From: an uncultured bacterium
Lineage (GTDB): Bacteria; Patescibacteriota; Minisyncoccia; Phycocordibacterales; Phycocordibacteraceae
Assembly: GCA_947085505.1 (NCBI GenBank)
Contig: CAMTWI010000003.1
Location: 7,319-71,318, forward strand
Direction of reading: 5' to 3'
Length of the DNA: 64,000 nt
Below the pieces are notes generated by a model, which worked only from the letters and a program-made list of their open reading frames with translations, was not told the origin of the DNA and did no database searches. Both the position numbers and the translations under genes were made by a program. Each line of letters starts with the position of its first letter. Position 1 is the first letter of the stretch. Positions 19,641-56,378 of this stretch are shown here, in pieces.

Positions 19641-19740
19641 AAAAGAATCGTAGCATGCAAAATGAAACGGGCCGGACTCTCTAAAGGAGAATCCAGCCCG
19701 TGAACTATCGGTTCATGAACGCGAGCCGAGACGTGATGAC

Positions 19741-20088
19741 CTAGTGGCCGCGTCCCTTGGACGCGTGGACATCCGCCAGCGGGTCGGAATGCCGATGGCC
19801 AACGAACGTAATGGCGAGCATGCCGGCCAGGATTCCGAAACCGATGGCGAACGAAAATGCACTGCCAGACCAGCCGGTCGCCATAATACCGACAGCGACG
19901 GCGCCGATACCGATGACCCAGGCGAACCAGTCCGGCTTCCTGGCGATCAGGGCGGTAAAGAAGGCCAGAACTCCAGCCAACAGGTAGAAATGCAGGCTGC
20001 TGGGCATCAGGTTCAGGACCACGGCCCCACCGAAGACTGCGGCCAACGCAAGGCCAATGGCGACAAGAAATTTGGACATGCTATTCAC
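19741..20088 (-). CDS. small polytopic membrane protein of atypical (GC-rich) composition
   Basis: 115 aa with about 4 hydrophobic helices. Local GC is roughly 60% or more by hand count, against a background of about 50-55%. GCC/GCG-biased codons. It is inserted between pilC and pilB. Confidence 0.45.
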   Translation of the reverse strand: MNSMSKFLVAIGLALAAVFGGAVVLNLMPSSLHFYLLAGVLAFFTALIARKPDWFAWVIGIGAVAVGIMATGWSGSAFSFAIGFGILAGMLAITFVGHRHSDPLADVHASKGRGH

Positions 20089-20170
20089 TCCCAGGACGCG
20101 CGTACCTAGTTAATCCAGATACTCTTTCGCGTCTCCTCCCTGGTTATACGCCCGCTGTACTAAAATGCAA

Positions 20171-21925
20171 CTATTCTGAAACCGCTCTCAACACCTCCTC
20201 AACCGAGGTAATTCCACGCGTGGACTTGTAGAGGCCGTCTTCGAGCATTGTTAGCATGCCTTCTTTGCGCGCCTGAGCCTCAATAGCGTCTGGTGCTGCG
20301 TTGTGGAGAATGAGCTCACGAAGTGCAGATGAAAGCATCAAGACCTCATGAATACCGATACGACCTGAGTATCCATCCTCGCACTGTGGAGACGGGACCG
20401 GCCTATAGAATGGAACAGCATCCATTGTTGTTCCCTCCTTCACGAGCTTCTCTTCAATAAGCGCCTTGAGTACATTGTCGAACTTGTCCGCACTCGCGAC
20501 CTTCTCACGTTCGACCGCATCAAGCGCATACTGTTCTTTTCCGTCGCAGAGTCTACGCACAAGACGCTGACCCATAACCATGCGCAGCGTTGAAACCAAG
20601 AGGAATGGTTCCACGCCCATATCCATGAGACGCGGGATGGCACCGGCCGCAGAGTTCGTGTGAATGGTTGAGAGTACGAGGTGTCCGGTGAGTGCGGCGT
20701 TAATCGCTAGGGACGCCGTCTCAGCGTCACGAATCTCTCCCACCATGATGATGTTCGGGTCCTGACGAAGGAGTGCACGGAGTCCATTGGCGAACGTAAA
20801 GCCTATGGCTGGGTTCACCTGTGTCTGATTCACACGCTTCATCTGGTACTCGATCGGATCCTCAACAGTTGAGATATTAACGTCCGGCGTATTCAAAATA
20901 TCGAGGATGGTATAGAGCGTTGTGGTCTTTCCAGAGCCAGTTGGTCCGGAAATCAAAATGATGCCCGTTGTCTGTTTCATAGACTGGTGCACCCGCTCAA
21001 GCCCTGAGCCATGGAACCCGAGCACATCAAGCGTAAATCCTTCGCCGGTCTCCCTAAGGAGACGCATAACAATCTTTTCGCCAAAGTACGTCGGCAGAAG
21101 AGACACACGGAACGACACCTTGTCTGCTTCAGTCTCCATCTTGAAGCGGCCGTCCTGCGGCAAGCGCTTCTCGTCGAGCTTCAGGTTTGCAAGCACTTTA
21201 ATGCGGGCGGTAATGCCGGACGCTGCGGTGCGTGGAAGCGTCATCGCGTCATGCAACACGCCGTCAATGCGGTAGCGGACGAGCACTTCCTGTTCCATTG
21301 GCTCAATATGGATATCTGATGCCTTCTGGATAATTGCGTGGCGTAAGAGCGTATCAACGATGCGTACAATTGGTAGGTCCTCGGCCATCTTCTTCAGATC
21401 CTCGCCAGACGCATCATCTCCTAGCTGCCCGTCCTTTATAAGGTTGATGCGGCCGGCTTCGGTTGTGATGAGGTCGCCGAACTCTTCCTTAAGAGACTTC
21501 TGGTACTGCAGGAGCACGTTCTTGAGTGACTCGTCGTCGGTGAGGCGTGGAAGAATCTTGAGACCTGTTGTCTTACGCACCGAGTCGATAGCCGGAAGGT
21601 CCTCAGTATCAAGCATCGCTACTTCGAGCGAGCTCCCATCCTTCTTGAACGCAACGATGGAGTGCGTGCGTGCGATTGGTTCTGGGATTAACGAGAGGAC
21701 GTTCAAGTCGATCTTCTTGTCCTTCAGATTAACGAAGGGAATTCCAAGGACGTATGCTTTTATGCGGCGAAGACTGTCGGTTGAGAGAAGTCCCTGTGCA
21801 ATCAAGATGTCGCCGATAGACTGCTTCTTTCGCTTCGCTTCCTCATCTGCAGCCTCAACATCCTTCCGGGACACGAGTCCGGAGTCGAGAATGAATTCCT
21901 TAAGTTCGCTTTCAGAGACCTGCAT
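20171..21925 (-). CDS. pilB: type IV pilus assembly ATPase PilB/GspE
   Basis: Walker A GPTGSGKTTT, Asp box, His box, Walker B GEIRD, and N-terminal GSPII domain. Length 584 aa. Confidence 0.9.
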   Translation of the reverse strand: MQVSESELKEFILDSGLVSRKDVEAADEEAKRKKQSIGDILIAQGLLSTDSLRRIKAYVLGIPFVNLKDKKIDLNVLSLIPEPIARTHSIVAFKKDGSSLEVAMLDTEDLPAIDSVRKTTGLKILPRLTDDESLKNVLLQYQKSLKEEFGDLITTEAGRINLIKDGQLGDDASGEDLKKMAEDLPIVRIVDTLLRHAIIQKASDIHIEPMEQEVLVRYRIDGVLHDAMTLPRTAASGITARIKVLANLKLDEKRLPQDGRFKMETEADKVSFRVSLLPTYFGEKIVMRLLRETGEGFTLDVLGFHGSGLERVHQSMKQTTGIILISGPTGSGKTTTLYTILDILNTPDVNISTVEDPIEYQMKRVNQTQVNPAIGFTFANGLRALLRQDPNIIMVGEIRDAETASLAINAALTGHLVLSTIHTNSAAGAIPRLMDMGVEPFLLVSTLRMVMGQRLVRRLCDGKEQYALDAVEREKVASADKFDNVLKALIEEKLVKEGTTMDAVPFYRPVPSPQCEDGYSGRIGIHEVLMLSSALRELILHNAAPDAIEAQARKEGMLTMLEDGLYKSTRGITSVEEVLRAVSE

Positions 21926-39068: not shown

Positions 39069-40094
39069 CTAGGAACCGAATGGATTCTTCGCGCCACGAA
39101 CCTCGAAGTGGAGGTGGTAGCCAGTAGACTGTCCGGTGTTTCCAACCGTACCAATGTTTTGGCCACGGGAGACTGTCTCACCAACCGATACAGCATTTGT
39201 GCTCATGTGCGAGTAAAGGGTCTGTACGCCGTTTCCGTGATCAATAACCACGTAGTTGCCGTATCCGCCGTTCCATCCACCAACACGCGAGACAATGACA
39301 GTACCGCCAGCAGCAGCATTAACCGCGGAGCCCTGCGGCGCTGCAAGGTCAACACCGTTCCAGCCGTGGATACCCTGGGACACGCGACCGGACGGGGCAG
39401 GGTTTGCAAAGCCGCCCGATATCGCGCCTGAGTTGTTTCCGGTACCGAGCACGGAACCAAGACTGCCTCCGGTCTTAATGTTTGACGTGGCCTTTGCAAC
39501 TGACTTCTTTGCAGGAGCCTTAACTTCAGCAATCTCGCCACCAGGGATGATAACGGTGTCGCCGGCAGTAAGGGAGCCCGCACGAGAAAGGCCATTATAG
39601 GAAGCAATCTCGTCAGCGTCAGAGTTGTAGCGCTTTGCGAGGGTCGCGAGAGTGTCGCCCGACACTACTTGGTGACGGATACCGGACACCGGAAGGATAA
39701 CAAGGGTCATGCCTGGGCGTACGGCACCCTTATTGGAGAGGTTATTTGCCCAAAGGATCGTATTCATCGATACGTCGAACATGTCTGCGATCTCCGAGAG
39801 GGAGTCTCCCTCACGAACGGTATACGTAGAGATGCGACCAGAGGAGGTGGTGCGGTCAATGTCTGCAATAGTACCGTCTGGGCCCGTGTAGGCGATAAGC
39901 GCCGACCCGCCAGTTGTTGCGATGCCACCACGGCCCTTGGCAGGATTTGGGTCAGGGTTAACGGCTGCCTGAAGCAGATCAAGGCTGCTGTCATGGACCA
40001 TGGGTACGGTCGAAGTACCGTCCGATGCTCTCGTAACAGAAAAAGGCCAAAACGCGCCGGCGGCACGTGGCGTGAACATGATTCCTATCCCCAA
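39069..40094 (-). CDS. peptidoglycan DD-metalloendopeptidase: 2x LysM plus M23 peptidase domain
   Basis: Two LysM repeats, YTVREGDSLSEIA and HQVVSGDTLATLAKRY. M23 motifs HGWNGVDLAA, GNYVVIDHGNG and GYHLHFEVR are all present. Confidence 0.8.
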   Translation of the reverse strand: MGIGIMFTPRAAGAFWPFSVTRASDGTSTVPMVHDSSLDLLQAAVNPDPNPAKGRGGIATTGGSALIAYTGPDGTIADIDRTTSSGRISTYTVREGDSLSEIADMFDVSMNTILWANNLSNKGAVRPGMTLVILPVSGIRHQVVSGDTLATLAKRYNSDADEIASYNGLSRAGSLTAGDTVIIPGGEIAEVKAPAKKSVAKATSNIKTGGSLGSVLGTGNNSGAISGGFANPAPSGRVSQGIHGWNGVDLAAPQGSAVNAAAGGTVIVSRVGGWNGGYGNYVVIDHGNGVQTLYSHMSTNAVSVGETVSRGQNIGTVGNTGQSTGYHLHFEVRGAKNPFGS

Positions 40095-43138: not shown

Positions 43139-44143
43139 ATGGCTCATTCTACCCGTACACTCCGCATCGCTGCCGCTTCGTTACTAGCCGTTCTCATGGT
43201 GGGAGGTACCTATCTCTCGACCGGACCAAACCCCTTCTTCGGCCTAACACGCATCGTTGGTGCGCAGTCTTCTGAAGAACTCCTGCGCGAATATGCTGCA
43301 AAGGATAGCGACAGTGACGGGCTACCTGATTGGCAGGAAGCGCTGTACGGGACTGATCCCTTTAACCCCGAGTCGTTTAGGGTAGGTATTCTTGATGGGG
43401 AAGCGGTTGCACAGGGACTTATTGAGCCGAGAGTTACCGTGCGCGCCGAAAAAGAACCCACCGACCCAAACTCTATCCCCGGCACTGCAGGTGCTCCATC
43501 CTCTCTCACCGACCGTTTCGCTCAAACACTCCTCAAACAGTATCTTTTGAATCGTACCGGCACCCCTCCGAGCCAGGAGGAGATTGTTGCATTTGTGCAG
43601 AAAGGGGTTGCGGAGCTTTCTGCAAGTGCTGTCGAGAGAGACCGTTACACGCTTAGTGATGTTCGTGTTTCGGGAGACTCGGGAAGCGCAGCTCTTATTG
43701 CATACGCAGCGGAGGCGGAGGCGGCTATTGCAGCAAACACCGTTTCGAGCTCCATAAGTGCGCGCAACGAGCTTTCCTACTTCCAGGATGCAATACGAGG
43801 AGACGATGCTGCGCTAGCGAAGGTTTCTGCCTACAGCAAGGCCTACGCGGCAATGGGTGACGCCCTTATTCGCCTCCCGGTGCCACAAGAAGTACGTCAG
43901 TCGCATCTCACCATCGTTAACGCAACCATGCACCTAAGTAGCATGACCGCTGATATGGCAACACTTAAAGAAGATCCACTTCGAGCACTCATGGGCATCG
44001 GTCTGTATGGGAAACATGCAACGAGTATGAAGTCTGGATTTGCGAACCTAAACGGCGTGTTTAGGGCGAGACAGGTTTCCTTAACTAAAGGACAGCCTGG
44101 ATACGAGATCTTTAACACAAGCGAGTTAGCTGCTGCCCAGTAA
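43139..44143 (+). CDS. membrane-anchored protein of unknown function, first gene of T4SS-like operon
   Basis: N-terminal TM. DSDSDGLPDW is a Ca-binding-like DxDxDG motif. The rest is mostly alpha-helical. Confidence 0.4.
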   Translation: MAHSTRTLRIAAASLLAVLMVGGTYLSTGPNPFFGLTRIVGAQSSEELLREYAAKDSDSDGLPDWQEALYGTDPFNPESFRVGILDGEAVAQGLIEPRVTVRAEKEPTDPNSIPGTAGAPSSLTDRFAQTLLKQYLLNRTGTPPSQEEIVAFVQKGVAELSASAVERDRYTLSDVRVSGDSGSAALIAYAAEAEAAIAANTVSSSISARNELSYFQDAIRGDDAALAKVSAYSKAYAAMGDALIRLPVPQEVRQSHLTIVNATMHLSSMTADMATLKEDPLRALMGIGLYGKHATSMKSGFANLNGVFRARQVSLTKGQPGYEIFNTSELAAAQ

Positions 44144-44144
44144 C

Positions 44145-45599
44145 ATGACAACCTTCCGAAATAAAGCTCCCCTGGCAACCCTGCTTCTCGGAAGCCTGCT
44201 TCTGGTTTCGTGTGTCGTCGCAGCTCCGCAGACGGCACGCGCCGCTGACTACGATAGTCCTCTCCAGGTATTTAACTCGCTCGTAACGTCGCTTAGTACC
44301 GCAGCAGATAGAACGCTCAACTACATACTAAACGGACTTGCATGGGATTTGGCAAACCTTGCCATTGAATCCATGACCAAGAGTACGGTTAACTGGATTA
44401 ATTCTGGATTCCAGGGGTCTCCAGCATTCGTTACGGATCTCAGACAGAATATGCGTGGTGTTGCTGACACGATTGCGGGCCGCTTCTTTGACGAACTTAG
44501 TGAGACAAATTTTGGAAGGTCTCCATTCCAGGATCGCGTACTTGACGCAGTCCGTCTTGGGTATTATCTGCGCACAAGTCCAGAATCGTTTTATGTCCGC
44601 TATCCATATACGTTAAACCAGGTTAGTGCAGACGACCGTGCCTTCCTTCGTGGGGATTTCAGCCAGGGAGGTTTCAATGCATGGTTTGCAACCGTGATGT
44701 ACCCAGAGAACAATCCGTACGGAATGAACATCCTTCTGAACGAACAGCTTGAAAACAGGATTGGAAGCGGTCTTTCCATCCGTAGCCAGGAACTCGACTG
44801 GAGCAGGGGCTTTCTGTCGTGGAGGGGGGACTGCATTGCCACCGCACCGAATTCTGGAGCAAACAACACCCCAGTTAATCTCACGAATGAAGAACCGTGT
44901 ATAGATTACGAAGTCCTCACGCCAGGATCTGTCATACAAGAGGGACTTAACAAAGCACTCGGCGCTGGCCAAGATCGTCTTGTTGTTGCAGATGACTTCA
45001 ATGAGATCATCAGCGCGCTTTTGAATCAGCTTGTGGGCCAGGTGCTCGGAGGGAACAGTTCGGGCGGACTTCGAGGAGTATCTCGTCCAGCAACCGGAGG
45101 AGGATCCTCGTTCCTTGATCGATCCACTGATCCAACACTCAACCCTGGAAACAGCGCGAACACTGGTACCGCGTTCGCTGCAACCATTGCAGAACAGCGT
45201 TCGATTCTTGAGAGACACCAGGCTAGCTGGGAGAGGATTAGGGGTGCAGCACAAGCGGCACTCTCACGCTGCGGACCTGGTGGAGAACCGAACCCGGAGG
45301 TCGTTGTCACCCGTGCACAAGACGCACTTGTTAAGGCAGCGAACGGCATCGCAGCGTACCGCGATCTTGAGGAGCGCATCGCTGCCACTATAGCTGCTGG
45401 TGGGAACCAGACCGCTGCCATAACGCAGATTGTGAACGACTTCACAGCGCTTGGTCGCTCTGCAATGGTTCCAACAAGCGAAGAGATAGCGGAGGCGCAG
45501 ATTCAGGCGCAGGATACAGGGGACATTCGACCGGGATCGCTCTATAGCCAGATGAGTCGCCAGGCTGCAGGCAGTTGCCTTGCCGGCTCGTCTGAATAA
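44145..45599 (+). CDS. secreted protein of unknown function (signal peptide) in T4SS-like operon
   Basis: Signal peptide ...SCVVAAPQTARA. 484 aa. No recognisable catalytic motif. Confidence 0.4.
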   Translation: MTTFRNKAPLATLLLGSLLLVSCVVAAPQTARAADYDSPLQVFNSLVTSLSTAADRTLNYILNGLAWDLANLAIESMTKSTVNWINSGFQGSPAFVTDLRQNMRGVADTIAGRFFDELSETNFGRSPFQDRVLDAVRLGYYLRTSPESFYVRYPYTLNQVSADDRAFLRGDFSQGGFNAWFATVMYPENNPYGMNILLNEQLENRIGSGLSIRSQELDWSRGFLSWRGDCIATAPNSGANNTPVNLTNEEPCIDYEVLTPGSVIQEGLNKALGAGQDRLVVADDFNEIISALLNQLVGQVLGGNSSGGLRGVSRPATGGGSSFLDRSTDPTLNPGNSANTGTAFAATIAEQRSILERHQASWERIRGAAQAALSRCGPGGEPNPEVVVTRAQDALVKAANGIAAYRDLEERIAATIAAGGNQTAAITQIVNDFTALGRSAMVPTSEEIAEAQIQAQDTGDIRPGSLYSQMSRQAAGSCLAGSSE

Positions 45600-45603
45600 T
45601 TAT

Positions 45604-48093
45604 ATGCGAAAGCTCTTCAGAGCATCGCTGTTGATCACCGTACTTTCGGTGTTGCTCTTTATTACTAGCTATTCACCTACCCAGGCCCAAACAACTCTTG
45701 AACAATGTGGCTCCGCAAGCCCACCGGCGGATTGTATTTCGTATGATCCAACAATTAATCCTGTCTTGGTTAGAGAGGGGGCGAGGTATTACCAAGACTG
45801 GGGAACAAGGAGCCCTTACCAAAGCGAAAACGATGGTCTCTGCAAAGTATATGTTTCGGGTCCTGTCTTTTTTGCAGGCTGTGTAAAAGATGGACGTTTT
45901 TCCATTCAAGCTGACTATGTTATAGGGGCCCCCACTGGGGGAGAGCCCGTAACGGGTGTGCAAGTTGATCAGTCTGGGGAAGTTACCTCGCAACCAATCG
46001 AAACCTGTGGGCCAATGAACATCGGTTGTTGGCTAATTAAACTACCCGGCATGCTCTTCACGGGCATTGCATTTGTTTTCTTGCTTCTCTCAGGAATGAT
46101 CCTCGGACTCGCGGGCACAGTGTTCAACTGGGTGGTCATACGTACGGTCTTCCAGTTCGGCACGTATTTCGGCACGAACGAAGGCATGCTTATTGCGTGG
46201 GGCGTGATGCGTGACATTGCAAACATAGGCCTCCTGTTTGGTTTCATATTTATGGGAGTGCTTCTTATACTCAACGTCGATAGTGGGGGACACGGGCACG
46301 GCGGGGGTGTGAGTGCGAAGAAAGCTATACCACGCCTCATCATCTTTGCGGTGCTTTTAAACTTTAGTCTCTTTGCTTCACAGGCGGTTATCGACGTCGC
46401 AAACGCATTTAGCTCAAGCTTTGCAACGCTTGCTGGAGAAAATTGTACTGGCAACACCTCGACAGGGAGCAGTGCCACTGACAGAGCCGCCGGCATGGAC
46501 AATGAGCAATGCTCTAATGTGGGCATATCTGGGCAGATACTAAAAGTGGCTGGTCTCACGTCAATTTGGGATTCAGAAAACAGAGATGTTCAAACTGCAA
46601 TGAAGAATCTTGTCGATCGGCCCTATAGCTATGCGGTGTCCTTGATGCTGCTTTCCATTTTTGTACTCATCACAGCCATGGTGTTACTTGCGGGTTCCAT
46701 CATGCTCATTATCCGTGTGGTTATTTTGTCGCTTCTTATGGTTACGTCGCCCATAGGCTTTGCCGGCATGGCCATACCGAAGCTGCAGGGCATTGCCAGT
46801 ATGTGGTGGAGCAAGCTGATGTCGCAGGCGTTCTTCGCTCCCGTATATCTTCTTCTTATATTTATCAGTATCAAATTAACTGAGGGCCTCATGGAGGGAG
46901 AGGCGACCCTCGCCAATGCACTCATTGCGAATCAAGGAAACTCGGTGGCAGGGAACATGCAGGTGGTTATGGTGTTCATGGTTGTTATCGGATTCATGAT
47001 TGGTTCCTTGCTCGTGGCATCAAAGATGGGGGCGATGGGGGCGAAGTTTGCGACATCGGCAGTCGCAGGAACAACCATTGGTTTTGCTGGTTTTGCCGGT
47101 CGAAGGACGCTCGGAGCAGCATCAGGGAATGTTGCTAAAAGAATTGCATCGTCGAACTACGCTCGTAGCAATGGGTTTGGAAGTAGGTTCGCCTATAACA
47201 TAGCCAACAAGGGTGCTACGGCGAGCTACAGCGCTCGTACTGGTATAAATAACATCACTAAGGGCGCTGGTCTCGACATTGGCAACGCAGGGAAGAATGT
47301 AAGCCATGGAATTCATGGTATTGAGGAGGCAGAGGTGAAAAAACGTAAGGACTTTGCTGAAAAAACCCTTGCGCAGACGCCTGCAGAACAGGCTGCGGAG
47401 AAGAGACTTAAGGATGAGAAGGATCGAATAAAGCTCTATAAAGAGGCGGCCAAGGAAGAGCTCGATCGTGGAAATGAGCCTGAAGAAAGTGCACTCAAGG
47501 CACAGAAGGAGAAGCACACTGAAGCGGCAGCAGCACGTCTAAAAGACCTTAACACCAAAAAGCAGGCTGTAGCAAAGCTTGAGGCTGACGGAGTTTGGGG
47601 TAATGAGCTCGATGAGCAAAAGAAGGCACTTGCTGCCCTAGAGGAGGAGCATGAACAAGCATCTGAGATTGAGGCAGCCGATATTGCGTCTCGTCAAAAG
47701 CGAATATCTGATCGTGGCGCTCGCTTCGATAAGATTCTAAAGGATTACGACAACCGATCGAAAGAAATCGACAGAACTATCAGTGGCTACGAGTCTATCG
47801 ATAGCAGTGGGGGCATTATGTGGAACAAGGGCCTTTCTAAAGAGTCAGCACAACGTGAGTATGGGGAAGCGCTTGGCAAAGACCATGGCATGCCTCTTAC
47901 ACTGGGACACCATATAAACCAAGAGGCTTCCGCAGACATCCTTAAGAAGCTTAAGCGCAGCAAGCGCGACAAGTTGGTTGATGCAATTAAGGAGAATGCC
48001 AAGGAGGACAAAGAGGAGGACGGCGGCGGCAAGAAGGAAGAGAAGTCCAGTGGAGGCGAAAAGAAAAGTGGAGGAGATGGGGGCCATCACTAG
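45604..48093 (+). CDS. VirB6/TrbL-like polytopic T4SS channel protein with Cys-rich N-terminal ectodomain and long K/E-rich C-terminal coiled-coil tail
   Basis: A signal peptide is followed by a Cys-containing domain of about 130 aa. Then 6 or more TM helices. Then about 330 aa of charged coiled coil, ending in a Gly/Lys-rich tail. Start trimmed to MRKLFRAS. Confidence 0.55.
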   Translation: MRKLFRASLLITVLSVLLFITSYSPTQAQTTLEQCGSASPPADCISYDPTINPVLVREGARYYQDWGTRSPYQSENDGLCKVYVSGPVFFAGCVKDGRFSIQADYVIGAPTGGEPVTGVQVDQSGEVTSQPIETCGPMNIGCWLIKLPGMLFTGIAFVFLLLSGMILGLAGTVFNWVVIRTVFQFGTYFGTNEGMLIAWGVMRDIANIGLLFGFIFMGVLLILNVDSGGHGHGGGVSAKKAIPRLIIFAVLLNFSLFASQAVIDVANAFSSSFATLAGENCTGNTSTGSSATDRAAGMDNEQCSNVGISGQILKVAGLTSIWDSENRDVQTAMKNLVDRPYSYAVSLMLLSIFVLITAMVLLAGSIMLIIRVVILSLLMVTSPIGFAGMAIPKLQGIASMWWSKLMSQAFFAPVYLLLIFISIKLTEGLMEGEATLANALIANQGNSVAGNMQVVMVFMVVIGFMIGSLLVASKMGAMGAKFATSAVAGTTIGFAGFAGRRTLGAASGNVAKRIASSNYARSNGFGSRFAYNIANKGATASYSARTGINNITKGAGLDIGNAGKNVSHGIHGIEEAEVKKRKDFAEKTLAQTPAEQAAEKRLKDEKDRIKLYKEAAKEELDRGNEPEESALKAQKEKHTEAAAARLKDLNTKKQAVAKLEADGVWGNELDEQKKALAALEEEHEQASEIEAADIASRQKRISDRGARFDKILKDYDNRSKEIDRTISGYESIDSSGGIMWNKGLSKESAQREYGEALGKDHGMPLTLGHHINQEASADILKKLKRSKRDKLVDAIKENAKEDKEEDGGGKKEEKSSGGEKKSGGDGGHH

Positions 48094-48105
48094 TACAATA
48101 CTGAA

Positions 48106-48909
48106 ATGAATCCCGAAGAAGATCTTGATGACGTTGAAATAAACCAGGCAGTGGGTGCTGCTATGCGTGACTTACCAAGGCCCGTACAGGACTTCCTAAA
48201 GAGCGATGAGCGCGATGCTGTTGCTCGTGAATTGTCTGCAAAATATCAACTCCATGTTGACCAAGCAGGGGAGTTCGAACGATCCTTCATTCTAATGCTC
48301 TTGGGCGTGATGCGTCCCGAGGAATTCGTTACAACCCTGACTCAAGCTGGGCTCTCGCAAGACATTGTTAACGGGCTGGCCGCGGATTTGAACACCCGCG
48401 TATTCATGAAGCTACGTGATGCTGAACGCGAGCAGGTGGCTGCCGTACCCCCAGCACCACAAAAGCCAGCTCCGATTCCGCCACCCGCCCTTGATTACCA
48501 ACCCGCAGCCACACCAACACTCCCTGGTTCCCCTGTACCCGCGCCGATGCCGCCTCCCATAGCTACCCAGGCGCCAGTAGTACTCGAGCCAACGCCTGCA
48601 CCAAGCCCCGTTCCGCAGCAGCACTTTGTACACGCAATGCCTGATGCGCACGCTCAAGCCGGGTGGCACCCAGCTGCGGCAGTACATATATTTGTACCGA
48701 CTCAACCAAACCACCATCCGCAGCCTGCACCTATGCAGACCGTCCCTAGCATCGAGCCCGCTCCTGAAGTAGAGCCCGTAGCTGCGCGAATCGAGACCCC
48801 GCCAGCTACAGTGCGTGAGCCGGAGATACTACCTTCACAGCCGACCCTACCATCTACACCACTTAAAAAGGAATTCAGTTCTGATCCGTATCGCGAACCT
48901 ATCCAGTAG
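48106..48909 (+). CDS. proline-rich protein of unknown function in T4SS-like operon
   Basis: An N-terminal globular domain of about 110 aa is followed by a PAP/PxP-rich tail. Confidence 0.35.
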   Translation: MNPEEDLDDVEINQAVGAAMRDLPRPVQDFLKSDERDAVARELSAKYQLHVDQAGEFERSFILMLLGVMRPEEFVTTLTQAGLSQDIVNGLAADLNTRVFMKLRDAEREQVAAVPPAPQKPAPIPPPALDYQPAATPTLPGSPVPAPMPPPIATQAPVVLEPTPAPSPVPQQHFVHAMPDAHAQAGWHPAAAVHIFVPTQPNHHPQPAPMQTVPSIEPAPEVEPVAARIETPPATVREPEILPSQPTLPSTPLKKEFSSDPYREPIQ

Positions 48910-48954
48910 AAAATAGTGCGAGTGCTCATTCAGTATCGGGTATACTGGATAGCA

Positions 48955-49362
48955 ATGGAGTATCAGGTACCACAGTTCATTGAGGTTGAGGACAAGATAT
49001 TCGGTCCGTTCACACTCAAGCAGTTTATTTATGTTGCAGGGGGCGTGGGTCTCTGCGCAATCGTACTCCTCTATCTTCCGCTCTGGCTCGGTATTATCAT
49101 CGCTCTTCCCGTTGGCGCACTCACCGCAGCGCTCGCATTCTATAAGATAAACAACAAGCCGTTTGTTGAAATCATGGAGGCAGCCTTCAACTATTACATC
49201 GGAGATCGTCTCTATCTTTGGAAGAAGGACAGGAACGCGGTAGTAGATGCACCAGTGGCAGTAAAGCCTGCAGACCCCGCAAAGCTTGGTCTAACACAGA
49301 GCAGACTCAAAGATCTTGCATGGTCGCTTGATATCAAGGACAACCAGAATAACGGCGCATAG
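48955..49362 (+). CDS. PrgI/VirB3-like small membrane protein
   Basis: About 135 aa. Two adjacent TM helices near the N-terminus (FIYVAGGVGLCAIVLLYLPLWLGIIIALPVGALTAALAF). It lies immediately upstream of VirB4, as PrgI does. Confidence 0.5.
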   Translation: MEYQVPQFIEVEDKIFGPFTLKQFIYVAGGVGLCAIVLLYLPLWLGIIIALPVGALTAALAFYKINNKPFVEIMEAAFNYYIGDRLYLWKKDRNAVVDAPVAVKPADPAKLGLTQSRLKDLAWSLDIKDNQNNGA

Positions 49363-49364: not shown

Positions 49365-49994
49365 ATGGCATCGACAAAGACAACACAATCGTTTGTGCCC
49401 GTGAAGGAAGTCCGTAACGGCGTGGTCGTACTTAAAAATGATGGGTACCGCGGCATTCTCATGTGCTCATCCATTAACTTCGCTCTTAAAGGGGAAGATG
49501 AGCAGCGTGCGATTATAGGCGGGTTCCAGAGCCTTTTGAATACTCTCGATTTTACGATTCAAATTGTTGTACATTCTCGGAAAACCGACATTCGGCCGTA
49601 CCTTGCCTTGCTTGAGACTCGTATGAAGGATCAAACAAGTGAACTCATGCGGCTACAGTTGCGCGAGTATATTGCGTTCATCAGGAACTTCATCGACTCG
49701 AGCGACATTATGACGAAGATGTTCTATGTGGTGGTGCCGTATTCGGCAGGTGGTGGTGGAGTTGGGAAAAGCACCCCCGCATTTCTTGGTGGAAGACCGG
49801 TACCCAAAGACAATGGCGGAGACGGGTTCGAAGAACACCGTGTGCAGCTCGAGCAGCGCATGTCACTTGTTGTGCAGGGACTCGCCTCAAGTGGTGTACG
49901 TGCGGTTCCGCTCGGGACTGAAGAGATAATTGAACTTCTGTACCGTTCGTTCAACCTTTCTGAGCTTGAGAATCCTATTCATCTTTCTGCATAA
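49365..49994 (+). CDS. VirB4/TrbE/PrgJ-type ATPase, N-terminal segment, terminated by in-frame TAA
   Basis: The sequence (FVPVKEVRNGVVVLKNDGYRGILMCSSINFALKGEDEQ...FTIQIVVHSRK) follows the VirB4 N-terminal pattern. It is in the same frame as the downstream ORF and is separated from it by TAA+TCT only. Confidence 0.6.
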   Translation: MASTKTTQSFVPVKEVRNGVVVLKNDGYRGILMCSSINFALKGEDEQRAIIGGFQSLLNTLDFTIQIVVHSRKTDIRPYLALLETRMKDQTSELMRLQLREYIAFIRNFIDSSDIMTKMFYVVVPYSAGGGGVGKSTPAFLGGRPVPKDNGGDGFEEHRVQLEQRMSLVVQGLASSGVRAVPLGTEEIIELLYRSFNLSELENPIHLSA

Positions 49995-49997: not shown

Positions 49998-51821
49998 ATG
50001 GCACTCCTCGACTTCCTTGGAAAGAATAAGAAAGAAGACGCGCCCGCGATAACGCCGGTGCTGCCAAAGGACATTTATGCAGAAGGGGAGCTAAAGCTTG
50101 CGGATGCTATTGCGCCTGCGGCTCTTAAAGTGGGGGCCCGAGAGCTTGAACTCGGCGAGAAGGTGTCTCGCTCGTTCTATACCATTTCGTATCCACGATT
50201 CTTGGTTGATAGCTGGTTCACGCCAATTATCAATCTCGATAAGGTATTCGATGTATCGATCTTCATTCATCCGGTAGAGACGGGGTCTGCACTCCGCGGA
50301 TTCCAGAAAAAAGTGGCCGAAATTGAGAGTCAGATTTCTGATAGGGAAGAGAAGGGGTTGGTGCGTGACCCAATGCTCGATACCGCGTACCGCGACCTCG
50401 AGCAGCTCCGCGACCAGTTGCAGCAGGCTGAGGAACACATCTTTGAGGTAGGTCTTTACATCACCCTCTACGGAAACTCGAAAGAGGACCTCGACAAGAT
50501 TGAGGGTGATGTGCGCGGCATCCTCGACGCAAAGCTTGTCTACACAAAGCCTGCCTTGTTCCAGCAGGAACAAGGATTCCGTTCTACGTTGCCACTTGCT
50601 ACCGACGAACTCATGGTTACGAGCAAGCTCAACTCGTCACCGCTTTCTTCAATATTCCCATTCGTCTCCTTCGACCTTACGAGCGATCGCGGCATTCTCT
50701 ACGGCATCAATCGCCATAACGCGTCCTTGATCCTCTTTGATCGCTTCTCGCTTGAGAACTACAACTCGGTGGTGTTTGCAAAGTCTGGTTCCGGAAAGTC
50801 CTACGCAGTGAAGCTCGAAATTCTTCGCTCTCTCATGTTTGGGTCGGATGTTATTGTCATCGACCCTGAGCGCGAATACGAGAACCTCGCGTCTGCAACT
50901 GGGGGACGCACCTTTAACATCTCGCTCTCCTCTGAACATCACATCAATCCGTTTGATCTTCCGCCCGTTAAAGAGGACGAGGAGCCGTCCGACATTCTTC
51001 GTTCAAACATCATTAACCTTGTTGGTCTCTTCCGCATCATGCTTGGGGGACTAACCCCTGAGGAGGATGCGATTGTTGATCGCGCTATTACAGAGACCTA
51101 TGCCCTTAAAGACATTACGGGTGATGCGGACTTCACGGGTGTAGAGCCACCACTTCTTTCAGACTTTGAGAACGTCCTTTCAGGGATGGAGGGCTCGGAA
51201 TCCCTTGTTATACGCCTTTCCAAGTACACGCACGGCACCTGGGCGGGATTCATAAATCAACCAACCAACATCGATATCAACAAGCAGTTCATTGTGTTCT
51301 CGGTGCGCGATATGGAGGACGAGTTGAAGCCGGTAGCGATGTACATCATTACGCACTTCATCTGGAACGCGGTGCGACACGAGCTCAAGAAGCGCCTTCT
51401 CGTCATCGACGAGGCCTGGTGGATGATGAAGTCGGAAGATACAGCGTCTTTCCTCTACAGCGTCGCGAAGCGCGGACGTAAGTACTATCTCGGTGTCGCG
51501 ACCATAACCCAGGATGTGGAGGACTTCTTGAAGAGCCCGTATGGTCGACCAATCCTCACAAACTCCTCAATGCAACTTTTGTTGAAGCAGTCTCCAACAA
51601 CAATCAATGTGCTTAAAGAGACTTTCAACCTAACCGATGAGGAGAAGTTCTTGCTCCTTGAGTCAGGTGTGGGGGAGGGACTCTTCTTTGCAGGACTTAA
51701 GCACGTCGCGATTAAGATCGTTGCTTCCTATACTGAAGACCAAATCATAACCTCAGACCCGTCGCAGCTTCTCCAGATCAGGCAGGAAAAGGCAAGGAAC
51801 GACGCAGGGCTCGTAGCCTAG
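49998..51821 (+). CDS. VirB4/TrbE/PrgJ-type T4SS ATPase, ATPase segment
   Basis: Walker A FAKSGSGKSY and Walker B LVIDEAWWMM. Conserved ATITQ near the C-terminus. Confidence 0.85.
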   Translation: MALLDFLGKNKKEDAPAITPVLPKDIYAEGELKLADAIAPAALKVGARELELGEKVSRSFYTISYPRFLVDSWFTPIINLDKVFDVSIFIHPVETGSALRGFQKKVAEIESQISDREEKGLVRDPMLDTAYRDLEQLRDQLQQAEEHIFEVGLYITLYGNSKEDLDKIEGDVRGILDAKLVYTKPALFQQEQGFRSTLPLATDELMVTSKLNSSPLSSIFPFVSFDLTSDRGILYGINRHNASLILFDRFSLENYNSVVFAKSGSGKSYAVKLEILRSLMFGSDVIVIDPEREYENLASATGGRTFNISLSSEHHINPFDLPPVKEDEEPSDILRSNIINLVGLFRIMLGGLTPEEDAIVDRAITETYALKDITGDADFTGVEPPLLSDFENVLSGMEGSESLVIRLSKYTHGTWAGFINQPTNIDINKQFIVFSVRDMEDELKPVAMYIITHFIWNAVRHELKKRLLVIDEAWWMMKSEDTASFLYSVAKRGRKYYLGVATITQDVEDFLKSPYGRPILTNSSMQLLLKQSPTTINVLKETFNLTDEEKFLLLESGVGEGLFFAGLKHVAIKIVASYTEDQIITSDPSQLLQIRQEKARNDAGLVA

Positions 51822-51824: not shown

Positions 51825-52328
51825 ATGGAAAAGAAGCATAAGATAGGAAATGTAACGGCCGGCATGATGATCGTGACGGCACTTATTGTTGATGCGGTCC
51901 AGGCATTGCTTACGTTCTCTGTTTTCCTTCTTCCTCTCTCTGTTCTTATAACGTTTATGGCAGCGACGATGTTCTTTCTCTGGTTTGCACTGTCCGGTGT
52001 GAAGTATGTGGGGAGTGGTGGAGGAAAGAAGCTTCTTATCGCACTTGCCTCAACAGTTGCTGAGCTCGTGCCGGTAGTTAATGTCATCCCCGCAACGACA
52101 GCAGGTGTTATTGGTATCATCGTTCAGACTCGTATTGAGGATGCTCGGGCACAAGCAGGAGGGAAAGTCACACCGCGCACAGCTATGGCTTCGGCGAGAC
52201 TACAAAAAATGAATCAGGCACGGGCTGCACGGGAAGACAGCGCCCGTGAAGGAAGAGAAGGAGCCCAACAGGCACGACACACCCCCGCAAATGACACTTC
52301 TGCCCACAATACTAGCGAAGCCGCATAA
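51825..52328 (+). CDS. small polytopic membrane protein (possible VirB2/TrbC-like or accessory)
   Basis: Three hydrophobic helices, then a charged tail. Confidence 0.35.
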   Translation: MEKKHKIGNVTAGMMIVTALIVDAVQALLTFSVFLLPLSVLITFMAATMFFLWFALSGVKYVGSGGGKKLLIALASTVAELVPVVNVIPATTAGVIGIIVQTRIEDARAQAGGKVTPRTAMASARLQKMNQARAAREDSAREGREGAQQARHTPANDTSAHNTSEAA

Positions 52329-52375: not shown

Positions 52376-53368
52376 ATGTATATGATACGCGTTGTGCTTC
52401 TCGCTTTTGTCTTCGCCGGCTCCTTTCTTGGCGTCTCGCATGCTCAAGGTATTCCAAACAGCACCGAGCCGCTTACGCTATCGGTATCTCCTGAATATCC
52501 TCGTCCTTACCAAACCGTTACTGTCTCCCCCCGAAGTAGTCTTCTTGACCTCTCGGCGAGTACGGTACGGATATCGGTTAATGGAACTACTGTCTATGAA
52601 GGAAGTGGCACCCAGGCTACAAGTGTGCGAGCAGGGGGCCTTGGAGAGCGCACAACCATAACGGTGTCGGTTACGGATCCTTCTGGCCGTGTCTATACCA
52701 AACAGCAAGTCTTGCGACCGGCAGAGGTGTCCTTGGTGCTTGAACCGGCATCAACCATGCACCCGTTCTACCAGGGAGGGGGACTCGTTGCATCAGAGGG
52801 GCGTGTGCGTCTTGTGGCGCTTGCTGATCTGCGCAGTGCACCAGGAACTCGTCTCCCAAGCTCAAGCCTCGTCTATACCTGGCGACTTGGAAGCCGTGTA
52901 CTAACGGACATGTCGGGTATAGGAAAGTCCACGCTCCTCGCAACCGCACCGGTTCGATACCGCAATGCCGATATCTCTGTTACGGTTACGAGCCCGGACA
53001 ACACACTCGTTGGCGAGGCACGCACACTTGTATCAGCGGTCGATCCTGTGGCGCGTATATATAGGAACGACCCGCTCCTTGGCCCTAACTTTGATGTCGC
53101 TCTCACCGATCGCTTCTCGATGCCTGACACTGAGACAACCTTCCGCGCTGTTGGATACTTCTTTGCCGTGCCACCAACATTTTCGTGGACGGTTAACAAA
53201 GCAACCAATGGAACTGACAAAGACATAACTGTGCGCGCAACTGGAAACGGGCAGGGTACCGCACGGATCGGCCTTACAGCGACCGAAGTCGCTGCCAGAC
53301 GCAGTGCGGATACTGCGGTTACTGTAGACTTCGGACGATCTACTGGCTTTGGCTTCTTTGGCCTATAA
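52376..53368 (+). CDS. secreted beta-rich protein of unknown function (signal peptide ...SHA|Q)
   Basis: Signal peptide MYMIRVVLLAFVFAGSFLGVSHAQ. Ser/Thr/Val-rich. Confidence 0.4.
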   Translation: MYMIRVVLLAFVFAGSFLGVSHAQGIPNSTEPLTLSVSPEYPRPYQTVTVSPRSSLLDLSASTVRISVNGTTVYEGSGTQATSVRAGGLGERTTITVSVTDPSGRVYTKQQVLRPAEVSLVLEPASTMHPFYQGGGLVASEGRVRLVALADLRSAPGTRLPSSSLVYTWRLGSRVLTDMSGIGKSTLLATAPVRYRNADISVTVTSPDNTLVGEARTLVSAVDPVARIYRNDPLLGPNFDVALTDRFSMPDTETTFRAVGYFFAVPPTFSWTVNKATNGTDKDITVRATGNGQGTARIGLTATEVAARRSADTAVTVDFGRSTGFGFFGL

Positions 53369-53372: not shown

Positions 53373-54383
53373 ATGAAATATCTCACTTTTCTCATACTTT
53401 TCCTCGGCCTTCCACTGCTCGCGTTTGCGCAGACGACAACCGGAGCCGTAAACACGGACACCAGTTTTGTTCCACTCACGAACATTCCGTTCCTTACCGA
53501 AACAGGAAACTCCTTCAGTCTTGATTCGTTTTTAAACGGGCTTTATCGCATAAGTATCGGTATCGCTGCTGTTGTTGCGGTCCTTCAGATCATGCGCGCG
53601 GGCATTATGTATATGGGCAGCGATAGTGGATTCGCTGAGAAAAAAGAGGCGAAGAATCTTATAGCACTCTCGATAGGCGGCCTTATTCTTGTGCTTTCAC
53701 CGGTGGTTGTGTTCTCCGTTATTAATCCTGAGATTCTTAATCTTAAGATAGGGAATATCGAGAAACTTAAACCCATTGAGTCTGCTGAACCTCGTAGAGT
53801 AATTGAGGTTGCGTCGGCAAGTGACTGTAGAGAGCAAGGAGGCGTAGTTGAGTCACAGGGACCACCAGTAACCTGTTCTGTACCAGCGGATTCTGATGCG
53901 GGCCGAGAAGCGACTTCCTGTGCCACCTTTAACAATCCTCCTGAGTCTCCAATTATTGTGGGCGGGAATTGTGCACTCGAGCTTAGTGAAAGTTACGTAA
54001 GAATTGATAATGCCTGTTGCGCCGGTATTCAGCAGGGAAATATTTGCTGTGGAAAAAGCGAAAGCTCAGGTGAGCAAGCGCCACGCGTCTTCCTTGATCA
54101 GCCGCTCATCTACTACAGCTATCAAGAGTACGACCGTGTAGAAAATAAAGGTAGGTTTGTTGGTGTGGTTCCGAACCATGCCGCGAGGGTTACTAGTTTT
54201 AGAAATGCTTGCACTGCAGCGGGCAGAGAAGTAGAGACAGATCGTGACGATAACTGGGCTGAGCGTTTTATCCTGGCTCGATGGGGAAGCTGTCCAGGGG
54301 ACACAGGTGTTCCTGCTAGTACAGGAAACACGAACACAGAGTATCAGTGTGAAGATAGAAGAGCTGTCTGTAAGACGAATTAA
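53373..54383 (+). CDS. VirB2/TrbC pilin-like N-terminal module fused to Cys-rich C-terminal domain
   Basis: A signal peptide is followed by two closely spaced hydrophobic helices (LYRISIGIAAVVAVLQIMRAGIMYM / LIALSIGGLILVLSPVVVF), as in T4SS pilins. The last ~200 aa contain about 17 Cys, including CC pairs. Confidence 0.4.
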   Translation: MKYLTFLILFLGLPLLAFAQTTTGAVNTDTSFVPLTNIPFLTETGNSFSLDSFLNGLYRISIGIAAVVAVLQIMRAGIMYMGSDSGFAEKKEAKNLIALSIGGLILVLSPVVVFSVINPEILNLKIGNIEKLKPIESAEPRRVIEVASASDCREQGGVVESQGPPVTCSVPADSDAGREATSCATFNNPPESPIIVGGNCALELSESYVRIDNACCAGIQQGNICCGKSESSGEQAPRVFLDQPLIYYSYQEYDRVENKGRFVGVVPNHAARVTSFRNACTAAGREVETDRDDNWAERFILARWGSCPGDTGVPASTGNTNTEYQCEDRRAVCKTN

Positions 54384-55603
54384 TGCAGCCTATGAACCGC
54401 CGCATCCTCATCATTGTCGCCAGCATCGTAGTTGTACTCGGCCTGCTTGTTGGTGCGTACTTCCTCTTCTTTAACAACCCGACTCTCTCGGTTGGAGTAC
54501 CAAGTAACCCCTTCGGTTCGAGTGGGAATCGCACAGAAACCGAACTTCTCAGTCCAGACGGGCAACCCACTCGAGGGGCTGGGACAGTTGTGGCACCCCG
54601 TCTTATACGTATTAGCGACGCACCTGTCGCCAAGGGCGCTGTAGCACTTTATATCCCGCCAGTACCTGCAGCGACTTCTACAGAGCCTGGTATACCTGCT
54701 GATACTGAGATTCGCTTCATAGAGCGCCAGAGCGGGAACATCTACGCATTCAGGGTCCATGATCGTGTGCTTACCCGTATTTCAAACCGCACACTTCCGG
54801 GTATACAGGAAGCAGCTTGGACCACAGACGGCGGTCGTGCATTCGTTCGCTACCTAACACGATCAACTGATGGTACAGAGCGTGTTGATACCTACATGCT
54901 CCCAGCTGATGGTGGAGAAGGGTACTTCCTTGAGCAGGATCTCGAGCAGGTTGCTGTACGAGCCACAAGCACGGTGTTCTCACTCCTTCCGAGCACGTCT
55001 GGATCCATTGGGTCTTTGTCTTCTCCAGACGGAACAAACGTACGAACACTCTTTACGTCAGCGCTTTCACGACTACGTGCAGGATTCTCTGGTGCAAACA
55101 TTGTTGCAACCACCAAAGCCTCGAGCGGGCTTGATGGATATTCGTTCCTTGTGGACGGCGGGTCATTCACGCGCATCCTGGGGCCCCTCAGGGGACTTGC
55201 AACCCTTCCAAACCAAGAAGGGACATCAGTCCTCTACAGCCATGTAGATGCCAATCGCACCTACCTGCAAGTACTTGACCTCGCAACAAGAAACGCAACG
55301 GCACTTCCGCTCGTTACGCTCGTAGAGAAATGCGTGTGGGAACCAGGAGGCAGGGCAGTGTATTGCGGTGTACCAACCGCACTCGCAGGCAACGTTCCAG
55401 ACGAATGGTATCAAGGCGCTAAAACATTCTCTGACCGCATCTGGCGCATCGATTTAGATACCCGTCTCGCAACACTTGTCGTTGACCCAGGACAAGTGGC
55501 AAATGTGGCCATTGACGCGATTGCGCTCACAATTGATTCGAAGGGTGATGTCCTTGTCTTTACAAACAAGAAAGACGGCACGCTCTGGGTATACGACCTT
55601 TAA
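54383..55603 (+). CDS. N-terminally anchored extracytoplasmic protein of unknown function, last gene of T4SS-like operon
   Basis: Single N-terminal TM. The ectodomain is beta-rich. Its start overlaps the upstream stop (TAATG). Confidence 0.4.
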   Translation: MQPMNRRILIIVASIVVVLGLLVGAYFLFFNNPTLSVGVPSNPFGSSGNRTETELLSPDGQPTRGAGTVVAPRLIRISDAPVAKGAVALYIPPVPAATSTEPGIPADTEIRFIERQSGNIYAFRVHDRVLTRISNRTLPGIQEAAWTTDGGRAFVRYLTRSTDGTERVDTYMLPADGGEGYFLEQDLEQVAVRATSTVFSLLPSTSGSIGSLSSPDGTNVRTLFTSALSRLRAGFSGANIVATTKASSGLDGYSFLVDGGSFTRILGPLRGLATLPNQEGTSVLYSHVDANRTYLQVLDLATRNATALPLVTLVEKCVWEPGGRAVYCGVPTALAGNVPDEWYQGAKTFSDRIWRIDLDTRLATLVVDPGQVANVAIDAIALTIDSKGDVLVFTNKKDGTLWVYDL

Positions 55604-55610
55604 GAAATAG

Positions 55611-55641
55611 CAAAAGGGCCCGTATATACGGGCCCTTTTGC
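55611..55641. terminator. bidirectional hairpin terminator between T4SS-like operon and yidC
   Basis: AAAAGGGCCCGTATATACGGGCCCTTTTG. Confidence 0.7.
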
Positions 55642-56378
55642 TATTTAACTGCGACGAGCTCTATCTTCTTTCGGCGGATAATAAATTCCTGAAGAACACC
55701 TACCAGGTTGCTCGTTATAAAGTAGAGAGCGATGGCAACCGAGGTGTAGTACGCAGCAACACCTATGAACACCGGGAGCATAAATCGCATCTGGAGCGCG
55801 AGCGAGCGTCCAAAGTCTGCCTGCATGTCCGTTCCTGGTTTCTTTGTACTCTTCTCAGGAACAGGTATTGCATACCAACCGTATGCGAACTGAGTGACTG
55901 CAGCGATAAGTGCAAGAATAATGCTCGCTCCCGTAACCGCAAAAACCCCCAAGAAGAGTGGCGCGATAGCGAGTGGAGCCGGAACGAATGAATAAAGAAT
56001 AGAAGCATCAACCGTAAGGAGGGTCTTGTTGTTGAACACCCAGTAGAGCGCAATAACAATCGGGAGCTGGATGATGAGTGTGAGAAGCCCTGCGAATGGA
56101 TTCACCCCATACTTCTTGTAAAGTGCGAACATTTCTTTCGCCTGGTTCTCTTTATCATCCTTGAGCTTCTCACGAATCTCTTTCATCTCTGGCTCAATGG
56201 CCTTGATTGCTCGCTGGGTGCGGAGTGCCGCGAACGAGAGCGGCATAAGGATGACTTTAACGATCAAGGTTGCCACAACCACCGCCAAACCAATATCCTG
56301 CCCAGGCAGGATATCTGTAAGGAACATGAGGAGGTTATAAATCGGCGCGTAGAGAACAGTATGGAAGAAGGACATCAT
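55641..56378 (-). CDS. yidC: membrane protein insertase YidC (short, Gram-positive/CPR-type)
   Basis: Five TM helices, with conserved YidC/Oxa1 core motifs. It sits in rpmH-rnpA-yidC synteny. Confidence 0.85.
   Translation of the reverse strand: MMSFFHTVLYAPIYNLLMFLTDILPGQDIGLAVVVATLIVKVILMPLSFAALRTQRAIKAIEPEMKEIREKLKDDKENQAKEMFALYKKYGVNPFAGLLTLIIQLPIVIALYWVFNNKTLLTVDASILYSFVPAPLAIAPLFLGVFAVTGASIILALIAAVTQFAYGWYAIPVPEKSTKKPGTDMQADFGRSLALQMRFMLPVFIGVAAYYTSVAIALYFITSNLVGVLQEFIIRRKKIELVAVK

Follow-up and report, generated by a model that had tools for sequence, protein, structure and literature searches.

We found that a gene at positions 53373 to 54383 of a 64-kb stretch of chromosome from an ultrasmall bacterium of the Patescibacteria (contig CAMTWI010000003.1; the whole stretch is referred to below as the window) encodes a protein of two modules, namely, a VirB2/TrbC-like pilin core of the kind that belongs to type IV secretion systems (T4SS; residues 1 to 132) and an extra globular, cysteine-rich domain (residues 133 to 336). 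Judged from sequence comparisons, this C-terminal extension is an exchangeable hypervariable cassette that is replaced either whole or in sub-cassettes. We hold these claims about architecture and recombination, taken together, with high confidence. The best overall explanation, which we regard as probable and far from secure, is that the gene encodes a single VirB2-like T4SS pilin that would display an exchangeable, disulfide-locked target-recognition domain.

RESULTS

Cassette-like exchange of the C-terminal extension

Across the family, the similarity of two N-terminal modules says little about the similarity of the attached C-terminal modules (r = 0.12 over 7140 homologue pairs), and 66% of the pairs with N-modules that are at least 90% identical have no detectable similarity between their C-modules. 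The window protein shares 99% identity with homologue P0010 in the N-module and nothing detectable in the C-module; for homologue P0002, the identities to it are 68% (N-module) and about 63% (C-module). There are also pairs whose C-modules are closer to each other than their N-modules, such as P0019/P0089 (76% versus 68%).

The boundaries of the exchanged segment are sharp at the DNA level. Relative to a locus of the same species (L004; GCA_022844065.1), the window has 94.8% to about 96% nucleotide identity in the upstream flank and 93.3% in the downstream flank, and the alignment ends at 53769, the first base of codon 133, and resumes at 54376, eight bases ahead of the stop codon, with identity at the random level in between. 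The resumed alignment runs into the next gene, p406, whose product is 89% identical to its counterpart in locus L003. A second, independent pair of loci (L006/L005) has flanks with about 95% and 94% identity and a break from codon ~135 to the gene end, and the proteins VirB4, DnaA, and DnaN of L003 are 97 to 99% identical to those of the window, compared with about 22 to 25% for the pilin C-module, which has 18 cysteines in L003.

Exchange can also involve a part of the extension. In the near-clonal metagenome contigs L093:2968-3984 and L091:2009-3001, the first 1500 nucleotides (nt) of the flanks are 99.8% (upstream) and 97.9% (downstream) identical, and the pilin genes differ at 3 nucleotides in codons 0 to 157 and at none from codon 231 to the end. 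The codons in between (158 to 230, a segment of ~70 residues of subdomain A; see below) differ at a proportion of 0.59 of synonymous sites (pS) and 0.36 of nonsynonymous sites (pN), with every cysteine conserved. Since synonymous divergence is saturated within an otherwise identical gene, a divergent allele must have been imported by recombination, and this sub-cassette mosaic points to gene conversion. The obvious homology arms for such events would be the pilin core and p406, both of which are conserved.

Other sources of variation were also considered. Hypervariation by point mutation does not agree with saturated synonymous sites in a mosaic segment whose flanks are identical. Within the 64-kb window, there is no sign of silent copies or of a shufflon, as a tblastn search with 120 cassette variants found nothing else there and the pilin gene has no flanking or inverted repeats and no shufflon segments. 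A diversity-generating retroelement was discarded because the window has no reverse transcriptase (the sole RVT_3 match is an RNase H) and no template repeat/variable repeat pair and because the entire 612-nt domain is replaced. Single-linkage clustering of the C-domains joined them into one component through shared subdomains and gave no usable cassette typing.

The extension across the pilin family

We collected 115 unique complete pilin genes from all loci fetched and, separately, a set of 120 database homologues. An extension of more than 40 amino acids (aa) is present in 113 of the 115 unique loci (median, 176 aa; below 40 aa in the other two), and each of the 41 species-level genomes recovered has a pilin with an extension of 71 to 329 aa. 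The sequence-only reading had regarded the combination as an unusual fusion and had proposed a comparison with relatives. This comparison reverses that view, as nearly all pilins of this Paceibacterota family have the extension, which is unusual only in relation to characterized VirB2 pilins.

If the cysteines of an extracytoplasmic domain are fully paired in disulfides, even cysteine counts are expected, and the number of cysteines in the extension is even in all 120 database homologues and in 113 of the 115 loci. Odd counts occur only in L059:1555-2556 (nine cysteines) and L037:812-1585 (one cysteine). Locus L029, with eight cysteines, has almost the same cassette DNA as L059 (99.6% identity), and the odd count in L059 may come from a single substitution or a sequencing error. 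Locus L038 has two family pilin genes (3-992 and 2156-3019) about 1 kb apart; the gene is single copy elsewhere.

An artifact, such as a miscalled open reading frame (ORF), a frameshift that joins two genes, or an assembly chimera, can be given practically no weight, as the same single ORF is found in 115 unique loci from independent assemblies, an identical protein is present as a partial copy in NCBI (P0001), and the reading frame is continuous. The ORF coordinates given in the sequence-only reading were exact, and the encoded protein has 336 aa. Its ATG at 53373 lies 4 nt past the stop of the upstream gene and is supported by the MKY found at the N terminus of all homologues, and its TAA stop codon shares 1 nt with the ATG of p406. 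The protein database contains 192 homologues of the window protein, for which the NCBI name is "pilin," and the close relatives are labeled Paceibacterota, Parcubacteria, or Kaiserbacteria. An exact 29-mer from the junction between the modules had no match in the JGI metagenomes.

The cysteine-rich domain

The domain behind the pilin core comprises 204 residues of polar sequence, close to the 200 or so that had been read from the sequence. It contains 12 cysteines (residues 152, 168, 183, 200, 215, 216, 225, 226, 280, 307, 326, and 333) and not about 17 as initially counted. The density of cysteines is nevertheless far beyond chance, at 5.9%, whereas 48 other window ORFs have 0.45% (13-fold; binomial P = 2.5e-10). 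Of the cysteine patterns first described, CC is present, as two pairs only, and C-x-C and C-x3-C are absent; the reported richness in acidic residues is mild, with 14.2% D+E and 9.8% K+R.

An AlphaFold2 (AF2) model of the window protein, built with the 120-sequence alignment, folds the extension into two compact alpha/beta subdomains, A and B (Table 1), and leaves the geometry between the hairpin of the pilin core and the C-domain undefined (predicted template modeling score [pTM], 0.40). The cysteines would form six disulfides that lock the two subdomains. Of the 120 homologues, 80 keep a CC-x(4-14)-CC motif, some homologues stop after subdomain A, and subdomain B is present or absent independently of A. 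The AF2 confidence for the sequence-unrelated cassette variant of P0010 is similar, with a predicted local distance difference test score (pLDDT) of about 90 to 95 for both types.

The C-domain of the 120 variants matches no consistent further Pfam family and no enzyme or toxin family, and Foldseek (E <= 0.001) gave no match for two AF2 models against PDB or for one of them against BFVD; the known enzymatic fold that would have spoken against the initial interpretation was therefore not found. A phmmer search of the C-domain against 1.84 billion representatives returned 16 matches, 13 of which are located behind the pilin module of proteins of 229 to 394 aa. Giant proteins account for the other three, and the match to one of these, the cysteine-free repeat protein P0122, looks compositional. 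As far as can be judged from these matches, the C-domain is found almost only on these pilins.

The pilin module

At the family level, the N-terminal module is clearly VirB2/TrbC-like by sequence. PF18895 (T4SS_pilin) matches the same stretch in 115 of the 120 homologues (best E value, 7e-7) and PF04956 matches it in 98 of the 120 (best, 3e-6), both at E <= 0.01, and precomputed Pfam pilin matches are located on several homologues. The window protein itself has a weak NCBIfam match to Mbov_0395, a mycoplasma pilin-like family of integrative and conjugative elements. Hydropathy and AF2 both give a helical hairpin of two closely spaced hydrophobic helices (H50-81 and H90-117), as the sequence-only reading had described, rather than a single transmembrane (TM) helix unrelated to pilins. 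Together with the family matches to PF04956 and PF18895, which that reading had proposed to search for, and a T4SS operon that includes VirB4, this hairpin supports the assignment of a VirB2/TrbC-like module. The signal peptide, which had been described as long, is an ordinary one of 19 aa; cleavage is predicted after AFA, before Q20.

Many positions of this module are conserved. F32, P34, L35, T36, and P39 are invariant or almost so across the family, and residues 20 to 32 have a pLDDT below 50. Across 120 sequences, G63, A65, A69, V70, Q72, R75, A76, G77, Y80, and M81 of helix 1 are invariant, as are G103, L106, L108, P110, and F114 of helix 2, and at the junction N118, P119, I121, L122, L124, and L132 are invariant or almost so. 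Assignment to the type IV pilins (T4P), which are expected to have a class III signal and a single N-terminal helix, was rejected, as the AxA signal here is of the Sec type, there are two helices, and no N_methyl match was obtained. A search with a hidden Markov model of the N-module found no second pilin-like copy in the 64-kb window.

Table 1. Features of the pilin gene and of the T4SS operon in the window
Feature	Position	Strand	Remarks
Whole pilin gene	53373..54383	+	336 aa plus stop
Sec signal peptide, residues 1-19 (MKYLTFLILFLGLPLLAFA, followed by Q)	53373..53429	+	Hydropathy; AF2 helix 4-19; AxA motif conserved in homologues
Mature N-terminal segment, residues 20-49	53430..53519	+	20-31 variable, low confidence; FVPLTNIP (32-39) conserved
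Hairpin helix 1, residues 50-81, hydrophobic core about 56-79	53520..53615	+	Hydropathy, AF2
Short polar loop, residues 82-89 (GSDSGFAE), then KKEAK opening helix 2	53616..53639	+	AF2
Hairpin helix 2, residues 90-117	53640..53723	+	Hydropathy, AF2
Conserved junction, residues 118-132 (NPEILNLKIGNIEKL)	53724..53768	+	Last conserved codons ahead of the variable cassette
Hypervariable Cys-rich cassette, residues 133-336, 12 Cys	53769..54380	+	Unalignable to L004
Subdomain A, residues 141-229, alpha/beta, 8 Cys, CC-x8-CC (215/216, 225/226)	53793..54059	+	pLDDT about 86-96
Subdomain B, residues 245-334, alpha/beta, 4 Cys	54105..54374	+	pLDDT about 94
Candidate VirB6-like channel subunit, 837-aa polytopic membrane protein	45580..48093	+	About 7 hydrophobic segments; no Pfam match
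PrgI/VirB3-like membrane protein	48916..49362	+	PF12666, 7.5e-10
TrsD/TraC-like protein, 209 aa, resembles N-terminal part of VirB4	49365..49994	+	Partial NCBIfam VirB4_plasma, CD1110, and TrsD matches
VirB4-type ATPase	49998..51821	+	PF19044 (1.5e-24), AAA_10, DUF87; 98.5% aa identity to L003 orthologue
p167, multi-TM	51825-52328	+	Between VirB4 and pilin; synteny kept in L001-L006
p330, secreted, beta-rich, without Cys	52376-53368	+	Between VirB4 and pilin; synteny kept in L001-L006
p406, N-terminal TM anchor and large external domain	54383..55603	+	Conserved; marks 3' cassette edge

The T4SS operon and its neighborhood

The pilin gene is located three genes downstream of VirB4 in an operon that encodes, in order, an 837-aa VirB6-like protein, p267, PrgI/VirB3, a TrsD-like protein, VirB4, p167, p330, the pilin, and p406, followed by yidC, dnaA, and dnaN, and the gene order is the same in the independent assemblies L001 to L006. 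This is the dnaA-proximal, chromosomal Patescibacterial T4SS described by Quinonero-Coronel et al. in 2025 (PMC12102498), whose pilin genes have proved essential for Southlakia epibionticum (PMC10633639). A Pfam scan of 50 ORFs across the window, several of which are unannotated, detected neither a relaxase nor a coupling protein. The assignment of the 837-aa protein as a putative VirB6 follows from its topology and position. The separate TrsD/TraC-like gene lies directly 5' of the gene for the 607-aa VirB4 ATPase and is 98% conserved in L003, and its orthologues match PF26593 (TraC-like).

The 837-aa protein and p267 (45580-48909) have 60 to 61% aa identity to their counterparts in L003, compared with 98% for VirB4, and the DNA of the 837-aa gene region is unalignable to L003 at about 45645-46041 and 47412-48085; the variable surface components of the T4SS machine may include these two proteins as well. 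A perfect 42-nt palindrome (21-nt arms without a spacer) at 55605-55646, between the convergent p406 and yidC, is probably a bidirectional terminator. The operon is preceded at 43139-45599 by two conserved genes, p334 (an N-terminal TM protein with a weak match to a bacterial TSP3 calcium-binding repeat) and p484 (with a signal peptide), both syntenic in relatives. About 5 kb upstream of the operon, a protein with LysM and M23 peptidase domains is encoded on the reverse strand at 39069-40094. It could be a cell wall hydrolase for the T4SS; VirB1 homologues can have extra domains that include LysM and M23 and are associated with virB4 in Paceibacteria (PMC12102498).

A T4P cluster is located at 13807-21925 on the reverse strand, with a PilB-like ATPase (20171-21925), a PilC-like T2SSF protein (18429-19640), a weak N-methyl pilin-like ORF (15236-15847), and two large ORFs, of which one (13807-15270) has no Pfam match and the other (15851-17329) has a weak CarboxypepD_reg match only. 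ComEC is encoded at 6467-7948, so this genome has both T4P/competence and T4SS systems. A 322-aa protein at 77-1045 on the reverse strand contains a CAP (cysteine-rich secretory protein/SCP) domain (E = 1.7e-17), another domain of the secreted type in this small genome. The remainder of the window is ordinary chromosome.

DISCUSSION

Our results lead us to propose that a single VirB2-like pilin presents an exchangeable domain on the outside of the Patescibacterial T4SS. After removal of the Sec signal peptide, the two helices would insert into the membrane as a hairpin, with the GSDSGFAE-KKEAK loop in the cytoplasm and both ends outside, and since both ends would be outside, the C-terminal domain would be extracellular and oxidized. 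The pilin core would contact the VirB4/TrsD/PrgI/VirB6-like machine and either polymerize into a pilus-like filament or join an external conduit. The loop (residues 82 to 89) is predicted to be cytoplasmic in the membrane by the positive-inside rule and lumen facing in the polymer by analogy to solved conjugative pili, where the inter-helix loop lines the lumen (PMC12037004). In a VirB2-type lattice, in which the termini point outward, the C-terminal domain would coat the outside, where it may contact a target, most likely the host cell of the epibiont. We envision strong diversifying pressure under which cassettes and sub-cassettes would be replaced by homologous recombination with divergent alleles, with the cysteine framework kept, and cassettes would be swapped between strains by transformation and recombination.

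Within an apparatus that epibiotic life requires, no other part would be as exposed or change as fast as this domain, and a target-recognition surface is the simplest reading of it. The idea of an adhesin or a host-binding tip, which was part of the sequence-only reading, thereby gains strength from the cassette-like hypervariability, and we consider host recognition by a domain displayed on the pilus to be a serious possibility that falls just short of being probable. More tentatively still, every subunit of the T4SS filament might carry an exchangeable, disulfide-locked receptor-binding domain of an undescribed fold, with the cassette allele setting the host cell to which the bacterium docks.

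Several observations weigh against the explanation that we favor. The match of the window protein to PF18895 (residues 52-114; 16.5 bits, E = 0.009) is below the gathering threshold of 26.6, and PF04956 is not reported for this protein. PDB sequence searches with the protein, a full-family profile, and an N-module profile returned noise only and no solved pilin, and Foldseek comparisons with solved conjugative pilins were not significant (8dfu, E = 6.7; 8exh, E = 9.5). A domain of ~22 kDa on each subunit may fit a VirB2 lattice poorly, or it may be cleaved off, as some VirB2 pilins lose their C terminus during maturation (PMC12037004), and the hypervariability could reflect evasion of phages or predators and not host binding. 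A CxxC scan of the window for a Dsb-like gene, moreover, gave nothing convincing. Oxidoreductases of the MdbA/VKOR type are enriched in genomes of the Candidate Phyla Radiation (CPR) (PMC6744442); none was seen in the window.

The concern about lattice packing is met by an alternative that we consider unlikely and the most credible of those remaining, in which the protein is a surface adhesin that does not polymerize and the hairpin only fixes it in the membrane or lets a few copies dock onto the T4SS as a VirB5-like tip or minor pilin, with the variable domain shown at the cell surface or the apparatus tip and not along a filament. The bulk of the 204-aa domain would argue against dense packing, and the hairpin-to-domain geometry is undefined in the AF2 model. 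Furthermore, T4SS of the Gram-positive type normally have no pili, and Patescibacterial T4SS have yielded no VirB5 or PrgB-type adhesin (PMC12102498), so an adhesin function would have to be located somewhere. However, the gene is the only VirB2-like gene at the locus, and hence there would be no other major pilin, and the many invariant small and aromatic residues of the hairpin across 120 sequences are more than a passive anchor needs.

It is also conceivable, if rather improbable as the main cause, that the variation of the same architecture is driven by evasion, with the exposed pilin serving as a receptor for CPR phages or antagonists and the outer domain as a replaceable shield. F and other conjugative pili are receptors for pilus-specific phages. 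Cassette replacement at ~95% and >99% flank identity is the pattern of phage-receptor and antigenic loci, and the domain has no recognizable binding fold. A mere shield would not, however, need two folded, disulfide-locked subdomains that are kept across 113 of 115 loci, and evasion is compatible with, and not exclusive of, a role in host recognition.

A polymorphic secreted effector or toxin is more improbable still. In this case, the N-module would be a carrier and the C-domain would be cut at the junction (NPEIL to L132) and released, similar to CdiA-CT/Rhs toxins or bacteriocins. A conserved N-module with a sharply bounded variable C-module is a hallmark of polymorphic toxins, the junction is invariant, and RP4 TrbC and R27 TrhA lose C-terminal residues in maturation (PMC12037004). 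Yet the cassette contains no immunity gene, since the variation reaches no further than the stop codon and p406, which follows, is conserved (93% nt and 89% aa identity). In addition, no toxin or enzyme Pfam family was found in the 120 variants, the PDB search with the two AF2 models gave no enzyme fold, and a conserved cysteine framework with variable loops is more in line with a scaffold for binding than with a catalytic site. CdiA-CT/Rhs proteins therefore resemble the window protein in their conserved N-terminal part and demarcated variable C-domain and differ from it in having a co-varying immunity gene and a toxin family.

The displayed-domain pilin that we favor has its closest relatives in the published VirB2-like pilins of Patescibacterial T4SS (Wang et al. 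2023, PMC10633639; PMC12102498), which share the VirB4, TrsD, PrgI/VirB3, and VirB6-like machine, the chromosomal site near dnaA, the lack of a visible relaxase or coupling protein, and the PF18895 and PF04956 matches. The pilin diversity described for these systems consists of tandem arrays of 2 to 11 short paralogous pilins, mainly in Saccharimonadia and Microgenomatia (PMC12102498). Here, in contrast, a single gene holds the diversity, in a disulfide-rich C-terminal domain of 70 to 330 aa that is exchanged between strains. In the literature searched on Patescibacterial T4SS pilins, there is no mention of a C-terminal extension, its near-universality, or cassette exchange. Within that literature, VirB2-like Patescibacterial pilins and their tandem-array diversity were thus already known, and the disulfide-rich C-domain, its near-universal presence in this family, and its cassette-like exchange are new.

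Classical conjugative pilins, such as VirB2 (T-pilus), TraA (F), TrbC (RP4), and TrhA (R27), likewise have a signal peptide, a two-helix hairpin, and a short charged loop and are encoded together with VirB4. Apart from TrhA, classical mature pilins have about 70 to 80 residues. Mature TrhA has 69, and the termini of these pilins are expected on the outer face of the filament (PMC12037004), as we propose here. They are purely helical, and some are cyclized or C-terminally trimmed, in contrast to the window protein, which has about 317 aa in its predicted mature form and carries an additional globular, cysteine-rich domain.

Diversified surface parts of T4SS are also known from Bartonella Trw, with multiple variant TrwL and TrwJ pilins, and from Helicobacter pylori CagL and CagY, where they are tied to host-specific adhesion; these systems have been offered as an analogy for Patescibacterial T4SS (PMC12102498). 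They belong to Gram-negative pathogens and vary by gene amplification or internal repeats, without a modular C-terminal cassette on VirB2. More remote parallels are found in unrelated proteins. Flagellin has a conserved D0/D1 core and hypervariable outer D2/D3 domains, and phage receptor-binding proteins have a conserved N-terminal anchor and a swapped C-terminal domain. With these, the pilin shares, by analogy only, a design in which a conserved module for polymerization or attachment is coupled to an exposed part that recombines, is hypervariable, and has sharply delimited mosaic edges. In the antigenic variation of Neisseria pilE/pilS and in the R64 PilV shufflon, recombination likewise varies the C-terminal part of a pilin or adhesin, and disulfide-bounded variable regions take part; however, these are T4P systems, whereas the window pilin has a Sec signal, no silent cassettes in the window, and no inverted repeats.

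Patescibacteria make up a large share of uncultivated bacterial diversity and appear to live attached to hosts, hardly any of which have been identified. In the single species examined, the T4SS has proved essential. A VirB2-type pilin with a large folded outer domain breaks with the picture of conjugative pilins as tiny helical hairpins. As the cassette is swapped between strains that are otherwise 95 to 99.8% identical, it would be the fastest-evolving and most exposed part of the machine and hence the best candidate for a determinant of host specificity or evasion.

If the cassette indeed sets host docking, the pilus would act like a polymorphic phage tail fiber, and the cassette would provide a host-range marker that can be read from sequence for a large uncultivated lineage. 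The questions of which host a given CPR bacterium uses and what the CPR T4SS is for become approachable with existing metagenomes, as the type of cassette can be compared with the hosts or phages found alongside it, and the well-predicted domains are suited to expression and binding screens.

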